Below, piece by piece: positions 49,024 through 60,015 of a stretch of 64,000 bases of DNA. The position numbers and the translations under genes are program-made. The DNA comes from an uncultured archaeon. Its GTDB lineage: Archaea; Asgardarchaeota; Lokiarchaeia; Sigyniarchaeales; SOKP01. The stretch spans positions 96,001 through 160,000 of the forward strand of contig CAZALK010000011.1 in NCBI GenBank assembly GCA_964486045.1, given 5' to 3'. Every line of letters begins with the position of its first letter. Within the stretch, counting starts at the first letter, position 1. The notes below the pieces were generated by a model, which was not told the origin of the DNA, did no database searches, and saw only the letters and a list, made by a program, of their open reading frames with translations.

Positions 49024-50355
49024 CTATAAAAAATTATCTAGAGTTTTTTGAGTTTTAATATAATTAATTAACTTACTACTCTTTTTCCAGTGTTTAAACT
49101 CTACAATAAAGCCCTCAGTTAATTTATTAATGGCATCATCAAAATTATCTAAAATAGTAGGAGTACTTGTCCACATTGCGTTGTTAACAGTTTCTCTTAT
49201 AACCCAGACACCTAATGGAACAACATAGCCACCGGAAACTTCACGGAATATAAGAACTCTTGCCTGTTTTTTTATCTTATACAAGTATTCACATACCGAT
49301 TTTCTTGCTGCATAGTATGCGCCAGTTATATTACTTGCATAATTCTTTCTCCCACCGTAAAATTCAAAGTCAGTCATTATTTGAGGTTTTAAATTTCGGT
49401 TATTACCATCAAGAGAAACATTCCATAATGTATTTGGGGCCCATACTTCATTCATTTCATAAATAAATTTCCCGGGAAATAACAAAATCTTGAGATGGTT
49501 ATCAAGATAAGTGGCTTCAAAAATCTGATAATCATCAATTTCTGGGAACTTTTTGATTTCTTTAATCAGACCTTTTGAAATTATATCATCAACAGCTGTT
49601 ATCGTCCAACGAGTAGGCACAATTCTACGCTTCTTTTCCTCGCCAAGTAATCCTGCTGAAAATATTCTTTTTATTGTGGATTCAGGTACATGTCCCTTAA
49701 AATAGAGATGTTCTGACACTGCTTCAGCTGCTGTTAAATCTATGTCTGATACACAATAATCAACCTGAGGATGAACTTTTGTATTCTCTGTTATCGTGAT
49801 TTTCTCTGTAATACCAGAAGGTCCTACGGGACTTGCGTGGTTGTCTACCAATATTCTTAAGTTTAATCGATCTAACTTAGCCTCAACATCAACTGGCTGA
49901 GAGGCCATAGATAATTCTTGAGATGACTCTAGTAATCTCTGCGTTTTTATCGAGGGGGTAATCTTTCTTGATTTTTGGCCAATATTGACATTGAGTTTGA
50001 AATTACTCCTCACTAGGCAACTCCTATATTTAATTATATCAACCATAGGTTTACCAAACCACAATTCAGGAGAATCGAGAATATGATAATCTGAAATATT
50101 AAGTCCTGTTTCAAATTCTTGAAAAGGAATTAAGGGTCCTAAATATACATTTGGATAATGAAAGTGTCCTACAAAAAATCCGGGAGGGCTGGCTCCAAAA
50201 ATCTTAACATTTCTTCTCGTCTTATCTAAATCGAAAGTAACCATAGATTTCAAAACTGATTTCTTTAATAAAATAGGACAAGTTTTTTTTCCACATAACA
50301 ACCTCCCTCCTTTACAACGAAGACAAACATTCTTTTCTGTTTGAGGTCTGACCAA
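49024..50355 (-). CDS. nreA: Archaeal DNA repair protein NreA
   Basis: CLRCKGGRLLCGKKTCP, SPPGFFVG, RRIVPTRWTITAVD, PLGVWVIRE, C-terminal PIP box QKTLDNF. Confidence 0.92.
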   Translation of the reverse strand: MVRPQTEKNVCLRCKGGRLLCGKKTCPILLKKSVLKSMVTFDLDKTRRNVKIFGASPPGFFVGHFHYPNVYLGPLIPFQEFETGLNISDYHILDSPELWFGKPMVDIIKYRSCLVRSNFKLNVNIGQKSRKITPSIKTQRLLESSQELSMASQPVDVEAKLDRLNLRILVDNHASPVGPSGITEKITITENTKVHPQVDYCVSDIDLTAAEAVSEHLYFKGHVPESTIKRIFSAGLLGEEKKRRIVPTRWTITAVDDIISKGLIKEIKKFPEIDDYQIFEATYLDNHLKILLFPGKFIYEMNEVWAPNTLWNVSLDGNNRNLKPQIMTDFEFYGGRKNYASNITGAYYAARKSVCEYLYKIKKQARVLIFREVSGGYVVPLGVWVIRETVNNAMWTSTPTILDNFDDAINKLTEGFIVEFKHWKKSSKLINYIKTQKTLDNFL

Positions 50356-50871: not shown

Positions 50872-51136
50872 TTAAAATAAAGATGTTCTGACACTGCTTC
50901 AGCTGCGGTTAAATCTATGTCTGATACACAATAATCAACCTGAGGATGAACTTTTGTATTCTCTGTTATAGTGATCCAAAAATCTCAACATTCCTCTTTA
51001 TTTTATCTAACTTAAATGGAACCATCGATTTTAAGACAGATTTCTTTATTAAAATTGGGCAAGTCTTTTTTCCGCAGAGGAGTCTCCCAGACTTGCACTT
51101 CAAACATATATTGGGCTCTGTGGAAGGTCGTACCAA
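50872..51136 (-). pseudogene. Remnant of a second nreA copy (N-terminus plus internal piece)
   Basis: MVRPSTEPNICLKCKSGRLLCGKKTCPIL..IFG joined to a 104-bp copy of nreA 49697-49800 (3 mismatches). Confidence 0.9.
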
Positions 51137-51341
51137 TCTTTTTTTACTCGAAAATTAATTAAATTCAAAAGTAACTATTATTCTCTATTATATAAATGGT
51201 AAAAGAGTTTAAATTTTTAATATTTTTAAAAAAAGAATTAATAATTCTAAATTATGAAATCAAATAAATCGATATTTTTAAGATTATTAGTAGGAATTGA
51301 TTGTATGAAAAAGTATAAATTAATAGTAATACTATCATTTA

Positions 51342-51590
51342 GTGATAATTATGATAATAAAACGAAAAGTGGGGCCAAAAGGTCAAGTTGTTATACCTAA
51401 AGATGTACGAGAAGCCCTTAATATTAAACCTGGAAGTGAAGTTTTAATAGAAATCATTGAAAATGAAATCAGAATAAGACTTCCTTCAAACAAGAAAGAA
51501 TTTTTAGAAGACTTTTTAAAAACTCCTGAAAAATTAACAGAGAAAGTAGATTTTAAAAAATTTTACTATAAACAATACACAAAGGATTAA
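51342..51590 (+). CDS. vapB: AbrB/MazE/SpoVT antitoxin
   Basis: KVGPKGQVVIPKDVREALNIKPGSEV. Confidence 0.9.
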   Translation: MIIMIIKRKVGPKGQVVIPKDVREALNIKPGSEVLIEIIENEIRIRLPSNKKEFLEDFLKTPEKLTEKVDFKKFYYKQYTKD

Positions 51591-51593
51591 ATT

Positions 51594-52007
51594 ATGGAAA
51601 AGGTCTACATTGACACAAATATATTTCTCAACCCCATTTTATATGATACAAAAACAAATCAGGAAGCTAGCAAATCTAAAAGCTTTTTAGAAAAGATTAT
51701 CGTTAATGAAATAATTGGATTTACATCTGTTTTAACTTGGGATGAATTTGTTTGGATTATAAGAAAAACTTTAGGCATACAAGTAGCTATAGAGAAGGGG
51801 AGAAAGTTTCTTATTATTCCAAATCTAAGAATTGTAAAAGTATCACTAATAACTATAAATCGGGCGCAGGATTTAATATCTAATTATAGTATTCAACCTC
51901 GAGATGCCATTCATGTAGCATGTGCATTAGAAAATAAAATAAATCAAATTATCAGCTTTGATGAAGAATTCGACATTATTAAGGAAATAGAAAGAACTGA
52001 ACCATAA
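51594..52007 (+). CDS. vapC: VapC PIN-domain toxin
   Basis: YIDTNIF, TWDEF, PRDAIHVACA, ISFDEEFD. Confidence 0.92.
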   Translation: MEKVYIDTNIFLNPILYDTKTNQEASKSKSFLEKIIVNEIIGFTSVLTWDEFVWIIRKTLGIQVAIEKGRKFLIIPNLRIVKVSLITINRAQDLISNYSIQPRDAIHVACALENKINQIISFDEEFDIIKEIERTEP

Positions 52008-52056: not shown

Positions 52057-52419
52057 TTATTTATCATTTTGTAAAGATTTATTATGAGCCCATTTCATTA
52101 AAGGTATCATAGCATCTCTAACTTCGATTCCATCCTGAGTTAGCGAGTATTCCACTTTTGGAGGTATTTCGGGAAAGAGCTCTCTCTTTATTAAGCCTGC
52201 TTCATTCAACTTTTTTAATCTATCTGAAAGGGCTTTTGGGCTTATACCTTTAATATCTTTTAAAAGTTCATTAAACCTTAACTTATCATAATTACTGATT
52301 GTGCCAATAATCACTAATGCCCATTTTTTACTAATGACATTAATAATTCCTTCTACCGGGCAAAAACAAAAGCCCTCTTCTCCCGTATTTTTACAACGAA
52401 TCCCAGTAACCTTTTTAAT
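52057..52419 (-). CDS. HxlR/DUF24 winged-HTH regulator with CFCP thiol motif (N-terminus extends beyond the ORF-track call; probable ATT start)
   Basis: Open frame IKKVTGIRCKNTGEEGFCFCPVEGIINVISKKWALVII..RFNEL..ISPKALSDRL..PPKVEYSLT; GGTGAG SD upstream of ATT at 52419. Confidence 0.85.
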   Translation of the reverse strand: MKKVTGIRCKNTGEEGFCFCPVEGIINVISKKWALVIIGTISNYDKLRFNELLKDIKGISPKALSDRLKKLNEAGLIKRELFPEIPPKVEYSLTQDGIEVRDAMIPLMKWAHNKSLQNDK

Positions 52420-53183: not shown

Positions 53184-53393
53184 ATGTTATATAATTGTAC
53201 CGTACATTGCCCATTTTGTGGACATTTAAATAAAGTTGAAATTCCGGAAAATAAATGACTTCTGAGCCTTGAATGTCAAGGTTGTAAGGATATCATTTCA
53301 GGGAAGGAAAATCCCCATGGTTGAAATTGAGTATTATGCGCTTATGGTGACACTCCTTGAGTACAAATTCAAGCAAAAGAAAAAATCAAGTAA
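53184..53393 (+). CDS. Putative GDCCVxC-family selenoprotein with four in-frame UGA (Sec) codons
   Basis: MLYNCTVHCPFCGHLNKVEIPENK-U-LLSLECQGCKDIISGKENPHG-U-N-U-VLCAYGDTP-U-VQIQAKEKIK*; TGA at 53256, 53322, 53328, 53358; ends in TAA. Confidence 0.75.
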
Positions 53394-53400
53394 AAAAAAA

Positions 53401-53448
53401 TCAATGATGCCAATGAATAAATGTTAGTCATTGGTTAAGACGAGATTG
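53401..53448 (+). promoter_or_regulatory. SECIS-like stem-loop candidate
   Basis: ATGA (53404) + 11 nt + AAA; helix GCCAATGA/TCATTGGT; 3' core reads TAAG rather than canonical NGAN. Confidence 0.45.
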
Positions 53449-53589
53449 CGCTCTCGAAAATTAAAAATAATATCTATAATCTCCTTTTTTTTATATATTA
53501 TTATAATAAGATTGAAAAAAGTTTTGATTGTAGATCTAAATAGAATAATAAATTAATAACTAATTTCTTTATTTAGAAGATGAAACAAA

Positions 53590-54993
53590 ATGGAAAACTA
53601 TGAATTAATTATAATAGGCGGCGGAGCAGCAGGATTTGCTGCTGCAATGAAAGCTAATGATTTAAAAATTAAAGCCCTAATGGTAAATAATGATGCGATA
53701 GGATTAGGTGGAACATGTGTTAATGTAGGCTGCGTTCCAACAAAATATTTGCTAAATATCGGAGATTTAATTAACAAATCGAGAAATCAACGATTTGAAG
53801 GTATCAAATCATCGATTTCTGTTAATTTTCAAAAAGTCATCGAGGGAAAAAATAATCTTATCAAGCAATTGCAACAGGATAAATATGAAAATGTTTTGAA
53901 AAAATTACCAAACGTTGATCTTGTTGAAGGTAATGCCAAATTCGTTTCAAACTCAGAAATTCAAGTGGATAATCAAAAAACATTTAAAACAAATAAATTT
54001 ATTGTTGCTACTGGCTCCTCATCTTTTATTCCACCAATAAAGGGTATTGAGCAAGTTGATTACACCACTAATATTGAAGCACTTCAATTAGAAAAGCTAC
54101 CAGAGACTATGATTGTTTTAGGTGGGGGTGCATTAGGAGTTGAATTTGCTCAATTATTTTCTCGATTTGGGACAAAAGTTTATCTTTTTGAAATGCTAGA
54201 TAGTATAGTACCAAATGAAGAACCTGAAATATCTCTTTATCTAAAAGAATATCTTCAAGATGAAGGAATCGAGATTTATACAAATGCTAAAATAATTGAA
54301 ATCGAAAATGGAGATAGTGAGAAAGTAATAAAAGTACTTCATAATAACAATGAGTCAACATTTAAAGCAGAACACATTTTAATCGCAGCAGGAAGGAAGC
54401 CTAACACTAACAATCTAGGACTAGAAGAAATTGGAATAAATTTAGGAAAGAAGGGACAGATTATCGTTGATGAATTTATGAAGGCAAGAGAAAACATATG
54501 GGCTGCCGGGGATGTAATCGGTGAACCAATGTTAGAAACTATTGCTGCTAGAGAAGGAATGATTGCTACGACGAATGCTTTATCAGATGAAAAAATTAAA
54601 ATGGATTACAGAGTGGTTCCCCATGCAATTTTTACCAGTCCTCAAGTTGGGAGTGTTGGTTTAACTGATCTCCAAGCAAATCAAATGGGTTTTGATTGCA
54701 GATGTAATACAATCCCAATTGGGTTTGTAGCTAAATCAAAAATCATTAATGAAGATAAAGGAGTATTAAAAATCGTAATCAATAGAAAAACAGAAGAAAT
54801 TTTAGGCATTCACATTTTATCTACTAATGCTGCTGATCTAATTCATGAAGGTGTTATGATTATTAAGAATCATATGACACTCGATGATGTAATTAGTACA
54901 ATCCATGTTTTTCCTACATTATCAGAAGCTATAAAACTTACAGCCCAATCATTCAAACGAGATATTTCTGTTATTAGTTGTTGTATTGAATAA
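53590..54993 (+). CDS. merA: Mercuric reductase (no N-terminal NmerA domain)
   Basis: GGGAAG FAD motif, GGTCVNVGCVPTK active site, HVFPTLSEAIKL, C-terminal vicinal SCCIE. Confidence 0.93.
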   Translation: MENYELIIIGGGAAGFAAAMKANDLKIKALMVNNDAIGLGGTCVNVGCVPTKYLLNIGDLINKSRNQRFEGIKSSISVNFQKVIEGKNNLIKQLQQDKYENVLKKLPNVDLVEGNAKFVSNSEIQVDNQKTFKTNKFIVATGSSSFIPPIKGIEQVDYTTNIEALQLEKLPETMIVLGGGALGVEFAQLFSRFGTKVYLFEMLDSIVPNEEPEISLYLKEYLQDEGIEIYTNAKIIEIENGDSEKVIKVLHNNNESTFKAEHILIAAGRKPNTNNLGLEEIGINLGKKGQIIVDEFMKARENIWAAGDVIGEPMLETIAAREGMIATTNALSDEKIKMDYRVVPHAIFTSPQVGSVGLTDLQANQMGFDCRCNTIPIGFVAKSKIINEDKGVLKIVINRKTEEILGIHILSTNAADLIHEGVMIIKNHMTLDDVISTIHVFPTLSEAIKLTAQSFKRDISVISCCIE

Positions 54994-55330: not shown

Positions 55331-57538
55331 ATGCTAATGAACAATTCACTCGAGAAAATTCTATTAAAAATTGGAGGTATGCAATGTTCCTTTTGCACTC
55401 ATTCGATTAAACAAGCTCTTAATCGCCTAAATGGTGTTCATAAGGTTGGAGTAAGTTTAGCACATGAAGAAGCTCTAATTCAATATGAGCCTTATTTAAC
55501 CAGCCCTCTTGAAATAAAAGATACACTTAGGGATTTAGGTTTTAAAATTAGAGATCCCAATAAACTCTATAGTTTTGATGAGGAAGAACAAGAATTACGC
55601 AAGGAAAGGAATCGTTTGTTCATAGCGACCACTGCGACATTAATCTCATTGGTGTTCATGGTTTTTATGTGGTTGGGGTTAAGAAATCTGTTAGTGCCTT
55701 GGATAATGTTTTTATTAGCAATTTTTACAATGTTTATCCCCGGTTGGTATATTAAACTAATGGCATGGGCATCTTTAAAAAGATTTATACTAAACCAACA
55801 TGTCTTATTAGAATTTGCAGCATTTGGAGGTTTAATAGGGGGAATTTATGGGATTTTTGTTAGGAATTGGCCAATAGCAGATTTTTTTGCTGTTTGTGTG
55901 TTTGTAACTAGTTATCATATTCTTTCTGGGTACGTTTCTTTGTTTGTAAGAACAAGATCTTCCCAGGCTATTAAAAAGTTAATGGAGTTACAACCTGAAA
56001 CAGCTCGAATTATAAAAAGAGATGATACTGAAGAAGAAATTTTAGTTGAATTGGTTAAAAAGGGAGATAAAGTAAGAATTCGCTCAGGAGAAAGAATTCC
56101 TGTGGACGGTATTGTAATTAGTGGTATGTCCTCAGTGGATCAAAGCCTTGTGACGGGAGAATCTTTCCCAGTCGAGAAAATAAAAGGAGATACTGTAATA
56201 GGGGGATCGTTAAATCTTCAAGGGTTGTTGTTAATTGAAGTAACTAAAGTCGGGAAAGATTCTTTCCTTCAACAAATCTCTCAACACATTCAGGAAGCAC
56301 GAGCTCTCAAACCAGGAATCGCGATTATAATTGATTACGTACTAAAATATTTCGTTAAAATCGTACTTTTCGCGGCAATTCTCGCTTTTTTTATTTGGAC
56401 AGTTGGGTTTTGGTTATTTACAGGAGAATTTAATTTCGAAAAAGCAATATTTGCAACATTATCAGTTCTAGTAATGGGTTACCCTTGCGCTTTAGGAATG
56501 GCTACTCCTTTAGCAATTATCCGAGGCGGTGGTATTGCGGCTCAAAAAGGTATTCTAATGCGTTCTGGAGAAGCTTTTCAGGTGTTTAAAGATATTAGTA
56601 AAATCATTTTTGATAAAACAGGCACCTTGACTATAGGAAGACCTCAAATCGTTAAAATTATACCAGTTAAACCTTATAGTAAAGAAGAACTTATTTCTGT
56701 AACAGCAAGTATTGAAGCTGGATCAAACCATCCTTTAGCAAAAGCTATTGTTGAATACGCTAACTCTAATGATATCCCTTTTCAAGAAGTCCTTGATTTT
56801 CAAGAAATTACAGGTCTAGGAGTTAAAGGGACTATAGATAATAAAAATATACTTGTGGGAAACACGCGTTTTATTGAAGGTAAAGGGATAATAAATGAAA
56901 AATTCGAGAAACAGCGGATTGAATTAGAGAACCAAGGTTTTACAATAATTAATATAGTAGAAAAAGAAAAAATTATTGGGGTTATTGCTATCGGAGATAC
57001 ATTAAAAGAGGATGCTAAAAAAACTATAGGTTTACTCAAACAACTTGAGATTGAGCCAACAATTATTACTGGTGATAATTGGCGTGTAGCGAAAGTTATT
57101 GCAAAAGAATTAGGTATTAACAACATATTAGCAGAGGTATTACCTCAAGAAAAAGCAAAAAAAATAAGAGATCTTCAATCTCAAGGAGATAGAGTGGCAA
57201 TGGTCGGGGATGGAACTAATGATGCTCCAGCACTAATGCAAGCTGATATTGGGATTGCCATTGGTGCAGGTACAGATATTGCTATAGAATCTGCTGATAT
57301 TATTTTAATTAATAATCAATTAAAAGGAATCATAGATGCTTACCATATAGGAAAATCTAGTTATTCAAAAACTGTTCAAAATATTATCATGGCTTTTTCA
57401 TTTAATGCAATTGGGGTACTTACTGGTATTCTTGGGTTAGTTCACCCGATATGGGCTATGATAGCCATGGCATTGAGTGTTACAACCGTCTTGTTAAACT
57501 CTTTTGCGGGAAAATTTTTTTTTAAAAAAAACAATTGA
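55331..57538 (+). CDS. P1B-type heavy-metal-translocating ATPase (CopA-like)
   Basis: GMQCSFC HMA, TGES, CPC, DKTGT, HP, TGD, GDGTNDAP, FN (for YN) and MALS. Confidence 0.92.
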   Translation: MLMNNSLEKILLKIGGMQCSFCTHSIKQALNRLNGVHKVGVSLAHEEALIQYEPYLTSPLEIKDTLRDLGFKIRDPNKLYSFDEEEQELRKERNRLFIATTATLISLVFMVFMWLGLRNLLVPWIMFLLAIFTMFIPGWYIKLMAWASLKRFILNQHVLLEFAAFGGLIGGIYGIFVRNWPIADFFAVCVFVTSYHILSGYVSLFVRTRSSQAIKKLMELQPETARIIKRDDTEEEILVELVKKGDKVRIRSGERIPVDGIVISGMSSVDQSLVTGESFPVEKIKGDTVIGGSLNLQGLLLIEVTKVGKDSFLQQISQHIQEARALKPGIAIIIDYVLKYFVKIVLFAAILAFFIWTVGFWLFTGEFNFEKAIFATLSVLVMGYPCALGMATPLAIIRGGGIAAQKGILMRSGEAFQVFKDISKIIFDKTGTLTIGRPQIVKIIPVKPYSKEELISVTASIEAGSNHPLAKAIVEYANSNDIPFQEVLDFQEITGLGVKGTIDNKNILVGNTRFIEGKGIINEKFEKQRIELENQGFTIINIVEKEKIIGVIAIGDTLKEDAKKTIGLLKQLEIEPTIITGDNWRVAKVIAKELGINNILAEVLPQEKAKKIRDLQSQGDRVAMVGDGTNDAPALMQADIGIAIGAGTDIAIESADIILINNQLKGIIDAYHIGKSSYSKTVQNIIMAFSFNAIGVLTGILGLVHPIWAMIAMALSVTTVLLNSFAGKFFFKKNN

Positions 57539-59424: not shown

Positions 59425-60015
59425 TTAAGGAAATCTATCATATTCTAAGTTATTAGACTTCATTATTCTCTTTGTAATTTCTTTAAAACTAGAGAGAATG
59501 TTCTCATTTTCTTTTGAAGAAGTCTTAATAAACTGTTTTTGATTATGGTTCTGAAGAAACTGTTCAATAATATATTTGTTAACTTTAAATTTTGCATCAA
59601 CATTCTGTGCTAAATCATGTTTCGTTCCTACTAATATTTTTGGGCAGTTCTTAAGGTTATACTGAATCAGATTTTCATACCACCAATCTAATTTGAATAG
59701 AGATTCCATGCTTAATAGATCAAATACTAGGAAAATTCCATTCGTTCCGTTTATATAATAACTAAATAGCTTTTTGAATTGTTCTTGGCCCCCAAAATCC
59801 CATATCGAAAGCCGGGCAAAAACCTCATCACCTTTAACAATAATTGGGATCTCATACGTATAGAAGTCTGTTCCTACAGTTAATTGAGTTTTAGCAGTAA
59901 AAGTATTTAAGCATAATCGTCTAGCTAGACATGTTTTTCCGACACCACCGCTGCCAATTAAACAAATTTTAAATACGTAACGAATGGGTTTGCCTTCCAT
60001 CATCCTCCTCATCAA
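59425..60015 (-). CDS. Rab-like small GTPase
   Basis: FKICLIGSGGVGKT, TVGTDF, IWDFGGQEQF, YYING, VGTKHD, TSSK; no C-terminal prenylation Cys. Confidence 0.9.
   Translation of the reverse strand: MMRRMMEGKPIRYVFKICLIGSGGVGKTCLARRLCLNTFTAKTQLTVGTDFYTYEIPIIVKGDEVFARLSIWDFGGQEQFKKLFSYYINGTNGIFLVFDLLSMESLFKLDWWYENLIQYNLKNCPKILVGTKHDLAQNVDAKFKVNKYIIEQFLQNHNQKQFIKTSSKENENILSSFKEITKRIMKSNNLEYDRFP

Follow-up and report, generated by a model that had tools for sequence, protein, structure and literature searches.

A short reading frame interrupted by four UGA codons, located directly upstream of merA in a Lokiarchaeia genome, very probably encodes a 69-residue selenoprotein of the GDCCVxC/GOS_B family, with all four UGAs decoded as selenocysteine (Sec) under the direction of a single lokiSECIS element. 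The gene lies in a stretch of 64,000 nucleotides, the whole of which was analyzed and is referred to here as the window; coordinates given without a contig or locus name are positions in it. On the sequence evidence presented below, 53184-53393 is a real selenoprotein gene and not a pseudogene. The four Sec residues, together with a fifth, ordinary Cys, may form a site for soft metal(loid)s, and we regard the whole explanation, Sec decoding plus the proposed metal(loid) function, as moderately probable.

A reading frame with four in-frame UGA codons

The initial annotation of this DNA described a 69-codon frame that runs from ATG to TAA and is broken only by TGA codons at positions 25, 47, 49 and 59. 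Upon translation of the window, we recovered the same codons, with no TAA, TAG or frameshift inside the frame, and the motifs of the read-through product (CPFCG, KU, ECQGC, GUNUVLCAYG, PU and IQ) were identical in the retranslation. With U read as C, the product matched NF041374, the model named 'GDCCVxC domain-containing (seleno)protein', at 48 bits (E 1.1e-12, profile positions 2-57 of 58), compared with a curated cut-off of 40 bits, which bears out the proposed family membership. The coding sequence and its four UGA codons are as follows:

53184-53393, plus strand: coding sequence of a predicted GDCCVxC-family selenoprotein, 69 residues with 5 Cys and 4 Sec (frame, NF041374, 26 orthologous loci, dN/dS)
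53256-53258, plus strand: UGA codon 25, predicted Sec; invariant Cys column, corresponding to the single-Sec column of bacterial GOS_B; TGA in 25/25
53322-53324, plus strand: UGA codon 47, predicted Sec; Asp column of GDCC and first U of UxU; TGA in 25/25
53328-53330, plus strand: UGA codon 49, predicted Sec; second Cys column of GDCC; TGA in 25/25
53358-53360, plus strand: UGA codon 59, predicted Sec; invariant Cys column in the C-terminal P-C..Q motif; TGA in 25/25

The annotation also stated that three of the UGAs fall on Cys columns while the fourth creates a UxU motif, and alignment with the Cys forms agrees: U25, U49 and U59 fall on invariant Cys columns of all-Cys homologues, U25 aligning with the Cys/Sec column after the (M/I)P-x-x-x position of the NF041374 family, and U47 falls on the Asp of GDCC. 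The CPxCG...CxxC knuckles are present, with C9, C12, C31 and C34 invariant among 36 aligned Sec and Cys forms. Rather than the literal GDCCVxC motif, all 26 Sec-form loci have G-U-x-U-V-x-C, in which the Asp is changed to Sec and the first Cys to N, T, P or A, with three residues inserted just before. We read this as a variant of the motif and not as loss of the site.

As the annotation anticipated, the gene is invisible to ordinary gene callers. There is no ORF over 53184-53393 with translation table 11, public gene calls on contigs identical in the region place nothing between an 88-aa ORF and merA, and the only database proteins close to the 4-Sec gene are four unnamed translations from short contigs in which TGA was read as W.

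Conservation of the four UGA columns

The initial annotation suggested two checks, a search with U read as C for columns that are either Cys or UGA, and dN/dS past each UGA. For the former, 400 genomes of the phylum were scanned with the family model, with stops read through. This gave 26 Sec-form loci in 25 genomes, all belonging to the window's own order (25 of its 149 sampled genomes, in families f1 and f3) and each with four in-frame TGAs; a further three families of the phylum yielded all-Cys, stop-free forms. Each of the 26 loci shares one set of four TGA columns, and the 16/22/10-codon spacing (CxxC, U1, U2/U3, U4) is invariant. The columns are strictly partitioned across these loci, with the five Cys columns never TGA and the four Sec columns never TGT or TGC, while the codons for the conserved Pro, Gly and Cys residues flanking the UGAs differ synonymously among orthologues. 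For the latter, pooled pairwise dN/dS was 0.27 before U25, 0.24 from U25 to U47, 0.16 from U49 to U59 and 0.26 after U59 (0.16-0.27 in every segment), figures that are approximate, as dS approaches saturation and the pairs lack independence. In a quick tree of 62 columns, itself weak, 25 Sec forms were found on one side of a branch with an SH-aLRT of 93, and a split inside the Sec clade matched families f3 and f1. This suggests that the Sec form had a single origin and was inherited vertically.

Four stops in frame under the standard code could also denote a decayed pseudogene, an untranslated remnant or a 24-residue peptide ending at the first UGA, and this genome does contain the truncated remains of a second copy. 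We consider these readings very improbable, given that the same four TGA columns are found in 26/26 loci from two families of the order, that purifying selection extends past each UGA, that the SECIS element described below covaries and that Sec is paired with Cys in homologues. The relic (G000:C16:46316-46390, minus strand, plus about 60 nt upstream; L071) has a full-scoring SECIS of 70 bits, and all that precedes it of a GDCCVxC homologue is the final ~17 codons (..LICSHSDTPULKIQQ, then the stop), the remainder of the gene being gone.

We noted irregular copies at a few loci. The match in G068 with two TGAs was considered as an intermediate Sec form and rejected; this damaged-looking sequence (L069, 2507-2662) is a Cys form with a degenerate, scrambled N-terminus, and its TGAs are off the Cys columns. 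The three TGAs initially counted for G162 were an artefact of an alignment cut-off, as the full frame has four. In another damaged-looking member, at L068 (G141, 364-645), the four Sec columns are kept, the first ribbon Cys is lost and there are extra TGAs upstream.

A eukaryote-like SECIS element and a second hairpin follow the stop codon

Two RNA structures are predicted immediately downstream of the gene:

53404-53440, plus strand: lokiSECIS element, eukaryote-like, 10 nt past the stop (layout and covariation)
53441-53456, plus strand: conserved second hairpin, 5-bp stem and 6-nt loop, directly 3´ of the SECIS core (5/5 pairs covary, 81% of cells paired)

The SECIS begins with AUGA (53404-07), continues with 9-nt stem arms (53408-16 and 53428-36) in which 8/9 positions pair around an A-rich 11-nt loop ending in AG (53417-27, sequence AUAAAUGUUAG), and has AA-GA at 53437-40. 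It is located 44-148 nt downstream of the four UGAs. An element with AUGA, a 9-bp stem, an 11-nt loop and GA/AA was detected 0-30 nt past the stop in 24/26 loci; in two loci the element starts a few nt before the first in-frame UGA, which is possibly the real stop there. The distance from the SECIS to the first UGA is about 143-158 nt in every locus with the element.

Among 21 aligned sequences, 13/14 pairs were changed on both sides (8/9 in the SECIS stem and 5/5 in the second hairpin), and 85% of the cells were paired, compared to 64% in shuffles and 43-52% with the partner slid; these covariation figures are also rough, as the genomes are related. The stem sequences vary by lineage with complementarity retained. 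A basal helix I enclosing the SECIS was also considered and is unsupported, with 46% of cells paired in a fixed register. The second hairpin is either a side hairpin of the SECIS or a structure of the transcript 3´ end. We saw hairpins resembling 53441-53456 at other places in the window's genome that match R1, a covariance model built from the SECIS elements of the orthologues.

In the window's own genome, R1 also matched at six other positions, two of them directly behind VhuD-like genes with an in-frame UGA, and had 0/30 matches at all-Cys family loci elsewhere in the phylum. R1 gave no match at the orthologues in G135 and G137; inspection of G137 by eye revealed AUGA followed by a stem of 8 bp, a loop that itself contains a mini-stem, and GA, an arrangement that is type-II-like. 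No SECIS family of Rfam was detected at E<=10 over the region. Standard SECIS models are also reported to miss Loki elements (PMC4989117). Two R1 matches in the genome (G000:C3:142929-143002 and G000:C35:3773-3850, both on the plus strand) are preceded by short frames carrying in-frame UGAs, one or two per frame, with ..GSGNUSC.. in one and, in the other, which is hydrophobic, ..SLAUGTRRP..; these are candidates for unannotated selenoproteins.

The genome has Sec machinery and uses UGA as a stop

The initial annotation had named Sec machinery as a further point to check, and the assembly of the window's genome (5.18 Mb, 45 contigs) contains tRNA-Sec (63.5 bits), SepSecS (494 bits), a PSTK-like gene that is full length but, at 141 bits, falls short of the curated cut-off, two SelD genes and, ~4 kb from tRNA-Sec, a SelB/EFSec-like gene (231 bits, just under the cut-off). 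Both SelD genes have in-frame TGA (Sec-containing); about 2 kb separates these paralogues (G000:C1:756646-757446 and 758869-759741), the first of which has one in-frame TGA and the second two.

TGA ends 316 of the 1839 ORFs of at least 300 codons, and frames close past the stop after a median of 11 codons for TGA, 13 for TAA and 11 for TAG. TGA is thus a normal stop that has not been reassigned across the genome, and the four UGAs need local recoding. That the UGAs are read as Trp, Cys or Gly, whether by near-cognate read-through or by a change of code, local or genome-wide, is extremely improbable: automatic pipelines did translate four close relatives with TGA=W, but TGA is an ordinary stop in this genome, the UGA columns align with Cys and not with Trp, and both a SECIS and Sec machinery are present.

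Predicted protein architecture

An AlphaFold2 model generated with the 36-sequence alignment (pLDDT 95) consists of four short strands and, after them, two short helices. As in zinc ribbons, strands flank the CPxC and CxxC knuckles. The loop that joins strands 2 and 3 contains U25, while U47, U49 and C52 fall where helix 1 begins and U59 immediately precedes helix 2. PDB sequence profile searches gave zinc-ribbon matches only, all weak (E>=0.014), Foldseek detected nothing at E<=0.001 (E>0.7) and the best VIA-align hit, at Z 3.8, was a weak zinc-ribbon-type match; no informative fold relative was found in these PDB sequence and fold searches. There was no match to HMA (PF00403) at E<=1, with GMTCxxC absent, and none to Fer4 or any other Fe-S family.

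We propose that the four ordinary cysteines C9, C12, C31 and C34 would hold a zinc-ribbon scaffold, while U25, U47, U49, C52 and U59 would form a second site. The assignment of these five residues to one site is suggested by the strict Cys/Sec partition. The second site could instead bind an Fe-S cluster, with Sec among the cluster ligands as proposed for Lokiarchaeal HdrA, or a different intrinsic metal cofactor, making the protein a small electron-transfer or sensor module, though we think this quite improbable. The nine conserved Cys/Sec residues of the family would suffice for a zinc site plus a cluster, a 4Fe-4S ferredoxin gene is present in the arsenic-type clusters described below, and Loki HdrA has up to four Sec, some of them on [4Fe-4S] ligand columns (PMC4989117). 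Against this, the protein lacks an Fe-S family match and its Cys/Sec spacing is unlike that of known cluster motifs.

Gene neighborhoods point to soft metal(loid)s

In the window, the following genes surround the 4-Sec gene:

52057-52314, minus strand: HxlR-family winged-helix regulator, upstream of the 4-Sec gene (context only)
53590-54993, plus strand: merA, mercury(II) reductase core without NmerA (TIGR02053, 534 bits, model positions 1-464 of 465)
55331-57538, plus strand: heavy-metal P-type ATPase with N-terminal HMA (E1-E2_ATPase, Hydrolase, HMA)

The MerA score of 534 bits compares with an equivalog cut-off of 454 for TIGR02053. The protein has kept the active-site CVNVGC (CxxxxC) and the C-terminal CC, in SCCIE, and has no N-terminal HMA domain, in agreement with the missing NmerA of the initial annotation. 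Just upstream of this metal island is a MazE-PIN toxin-antitoxin pair (50946-52007). Elsewhere in the window are two typical Asgard/archaeal markers, a Ras/Roc-family small GTPase (59425-60015, minus strand) and an archaeal Nre protein (49024-50355, minus strand), both in keeping with an assignment to the Lokiarchaeia.

We surveyed the genes within 2.5 kb of the 26 Sec-form loci. merA was found downstream in 7/26, directly in G000 (the window's genome), G229, G264, G236 and G162 and after a MerB-like gene in G216 and G183b. In three loci, a small thioredoxin-like gene precedes a MerB/SaoL-like lyase that also has an HTH domain. Arsenic contexts consist of ACR3-ArsM or ArsM in two loci, with related arsenic-type clusters in 2-3 more, and P-type ATPases are present in four loci. 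No recognizable metal gene was detected within 2.5 kb in ~11/26 loci, including G138. The mercury-specific context implied by the initial annotation is not borne out, as merA is adjacent in only 7/26 Sec-form loci and others have arsenic clusters or P-type ATPases. The combination of Hg, As and ATPase contexts rather suggests soft-metal(loid) resistance in general, not mercury alone, and the patchy presence in 25/149 genomes fits an accessory resistance gene. Given this gene context, a metal-handling role is plausible.

The lyase genes (L062:699-1559, L058:1083-1943 and L065:1418-2278) encode a 287-aa fusion of HTH and MerB-like domains and lie between the 4-Sec gene and merA, with the thioredoxin-like gene preceding. 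The match of the fusion to the SaoL organometallic-lyase model is weak (74 bits vs a cut-off of 140). The merA of G216 (L062:1662-3065) has a premature TAA/TAG at codon 95 and is a pseudogene or reflects an assembly error.

In the arsenic-type loci, a gene of a second Sec-rich family, which we denote UU, is found directly upstream of the 4-Sec gene (4U below). UU proteins are ~150 aa, have vicinal Sec-Sec (GCUU / HADUU / AUGUU) followed by RLDxGxFK...EYFAHYF and have no Pfam or NCBIfam match. G174 carries an ACR3-ArsM-UU-4U operon and G165 an ArsM-UU-4U arrangement, while the related arsenic-type clusters of G155 and G175 contain two UU genes, a ferredoxin and a homologue of the extension found at the C terminus of ArsM in G165. 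UU genes are at L045:1693-2163, L046:1265-1786 and 1888-2358, L061:1900-2355 and L053 (two copies), and a copy in the window's own genome (G000:C25:38547-39041; L072:1008-1502) is downstream of ArsR-like and ACR3-like genes. Each UU copy has its own lokiSECIS detected by R1, except in G165, where 12 nt separate UU from the 4-Sec gene and one SECIS was found; the element may therefore be shared.

The all-Cys family is widespread in bacteria; at least 600 loci were matched when genome contigs of bacteria and archaea were scanned. A set of 150 immediate bacterial neighbors included HMA (7), MerT (3), MerR (2), ArsP (2), ACR3-type (2), ArsM-type methyltransferase (2) and Thioredoxin_3 (2) genes, and is only mildly enriched in metal genes. 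A close association of the family with bacterial mer genes was also considered and rejected, as merA was within 3 kb in 1/80 bacterial all-Cys members. The statement in the initial annotation that the family is found near mer genes thus stands in a loose sense (HMA 7, MerT 3, MerR 2 of 150), but not as a tight association (merA 1/80).

A proposed role in metal(loid) capture, and a redox alternative

In MerA, MerT and HgcB, Hg(II) is bound by vicinal Cys pairs, and selenolates hold Hg and As tighter than thiolates do. We suggest that the second site, rich in selenolates, would bind thiophilic soft metal(loid)s, namely Hg(II) and As(III), and that the protein would act as a cytosolic scavenger or metallochaperone beside detoxification genes, with MerA and the P-type ATPase as its partners here and MerB-like or ACR3/ArsM proteins in relatives. 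That the second site binds soft metal(loid)s and that the protein is such a scavenger or metallochaperone is, in our estimation, somewhat probable.

A more specific and more tentative possibility is a Lokiarchaeal selenium-based toolkit for soft metal(loid)s. Four selenolates and one thiolate would provide an ultra-high-affinity Hg(II)/As(III) site for cytosolic capture, with hand-over to the NmerA-less MerA at mer-type loci or to ArsM/ACR3 at ars-type loci, and the protein would work together with the undescribed vicinal Sec-Sec family. If this were true, the protein would be the first dedicated selenoprotein metallochaperone and the densest use of Sec with one SECIS in a prokaryote.

The same gene could encode a genuine 4-Sec protein with a redox-catalytic role, as a selenol/thiol oxidoreductase or reductant relay that, for example, reduces arsenate or organometal adducts or re-reduces partners. 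Thioredoxin-like genes (Thioredoxin_3, with a weak MTH895/ArsE-family match) are directly upstream in three loci, the bacterial neighbors include Thioredoxin_3 and pyridine-nucleotide disulfide oxidoreductases, and most known selenoproteins employ Sec in redox catalysis (PMC4989117). We nevertheless consider the redox reading unlikely. Neither a thioredoxin fold nor a UxxC/CxxU redox box is present in the protein, a redox couple would not require as many as four Sec and a Cys at a single site, and the change of CC to UxU and the Hg/As neighborhoods suit ligand chemistry. The neighborhoods suggest that selenium serves as a metal(loid) ligand here and not as a redox catalyst, and the metal(loid)-binding role is the reading that we favor.

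Comparison with known systems

The family itself is already known. NF041374 corresponds to 'Hypothetical protein GOS_B', listed with one Sec (PMC13188914), and in the original paper 11 Sec and 125 Cys members were reported from ocean metagenomes with no functional clue (PMC2398784; Zhang & Gladyshev, 2008). In the supplementary sequences, the single Sec is at the U25 column, followed by L, then the CxxC knuckle and GDCCVFCSYG (PMC2398784). GOS_B and the Loki form share the CPxCG...CxxC zinc-ribbon half, the Cys/Sec column at position 25, the V-x-C-S/A/T-Y-G...P-C/U...Q tail and the character of a small stand-alone protein. Known Sec members of GOS_B are bacterial (marine metagenome reads), with one Sec and an in-frame bacterial SECIS, whereas the Loki form has four Sec, UxU in place of D-C-C, a 3-residue insertion (E-N-P/H) before UxU and a eukaryote-like SECIS in the 3´ UTR, and is confined to one clade in one order of Lokiarchaeia. 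The four-Sec, UxU form served by a lokiSECIS in Asgard archaea was not found in the literature searched: full-text searches for GDCCVxC, or for Asgard selenoproteins with mercuric reductase, gave nothing further, and the family goes unmentioned in the SAO selenoprotein preprint. The split between five always-Cys and four always-Sec columns marks what is likely the functional site of a widespread family (at least 600 loci).

A survey of more than 400 Asgard genomes catalogued seven selenoprotein families, SelD, FrhA/VhuU, HdrA, FrhD/VhuD, Prx-like, AhpF-N-like and DsbA-like (PMC11227280; Huang et al., 2024), and the GDCCVxC family is not among them. The gene described here would thus represent a further Asgard selenoprotein family, one that escapes both single-Sec homology queries and ordinary gene callers.

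The published lokiSECIS (PMC4989117) comprises AUGA, a 9-bp stem, an 11-nt A-rich loop with an end G usually after A, and GA (AA in VhuU). Our element has the same AUGA-stem-loop layout near the stop as this lokiSECIS and as the eSECIS-like type I of Asgard (PMC11227280), with AA as in VhuU. It differs in that it serves a family absent from the seven Asgard selenoprotein families (PMC11227280), in that one element would serve four UGAs over 34 codons of a 69-codon gene, and in the covarying second hairpin after the core, of which the part of PMC4989117 consulted has no description.

The NmerA/HMA modules (MerP, CopZ-like; PF00403) offer a possible analogy only, as small soft-metal modules encoded with MerA, and the suggestion of the initial annotation that the 4-Sec protein could stand in for NmerA is speculative. 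They have a ferredoxin-like beta-alpha-beta-beta-alpha-beta fold with GMxCxxC, whereas the 4-Sec protein is predicted to have four strands and two short helices and is not a member.

Also comparable are multi-Sec proteins of Lokiarchaeia, HdrA with up to four Sec, VhuD, and PrxL.1 with UxxU (PMC4989117; Mariotti et al., 2016). As in the gene described here, several Sec per chain are served by one 3´ SECIS and Sec takes the place of conserved Cys. These proteins are large redox enzymes or have a thioredoxin fold, whereas here 4 of 69 residues would be Sec, in a predicted zinc-ribbon mini-protein encoded in metal(loid)-resistance contexts.
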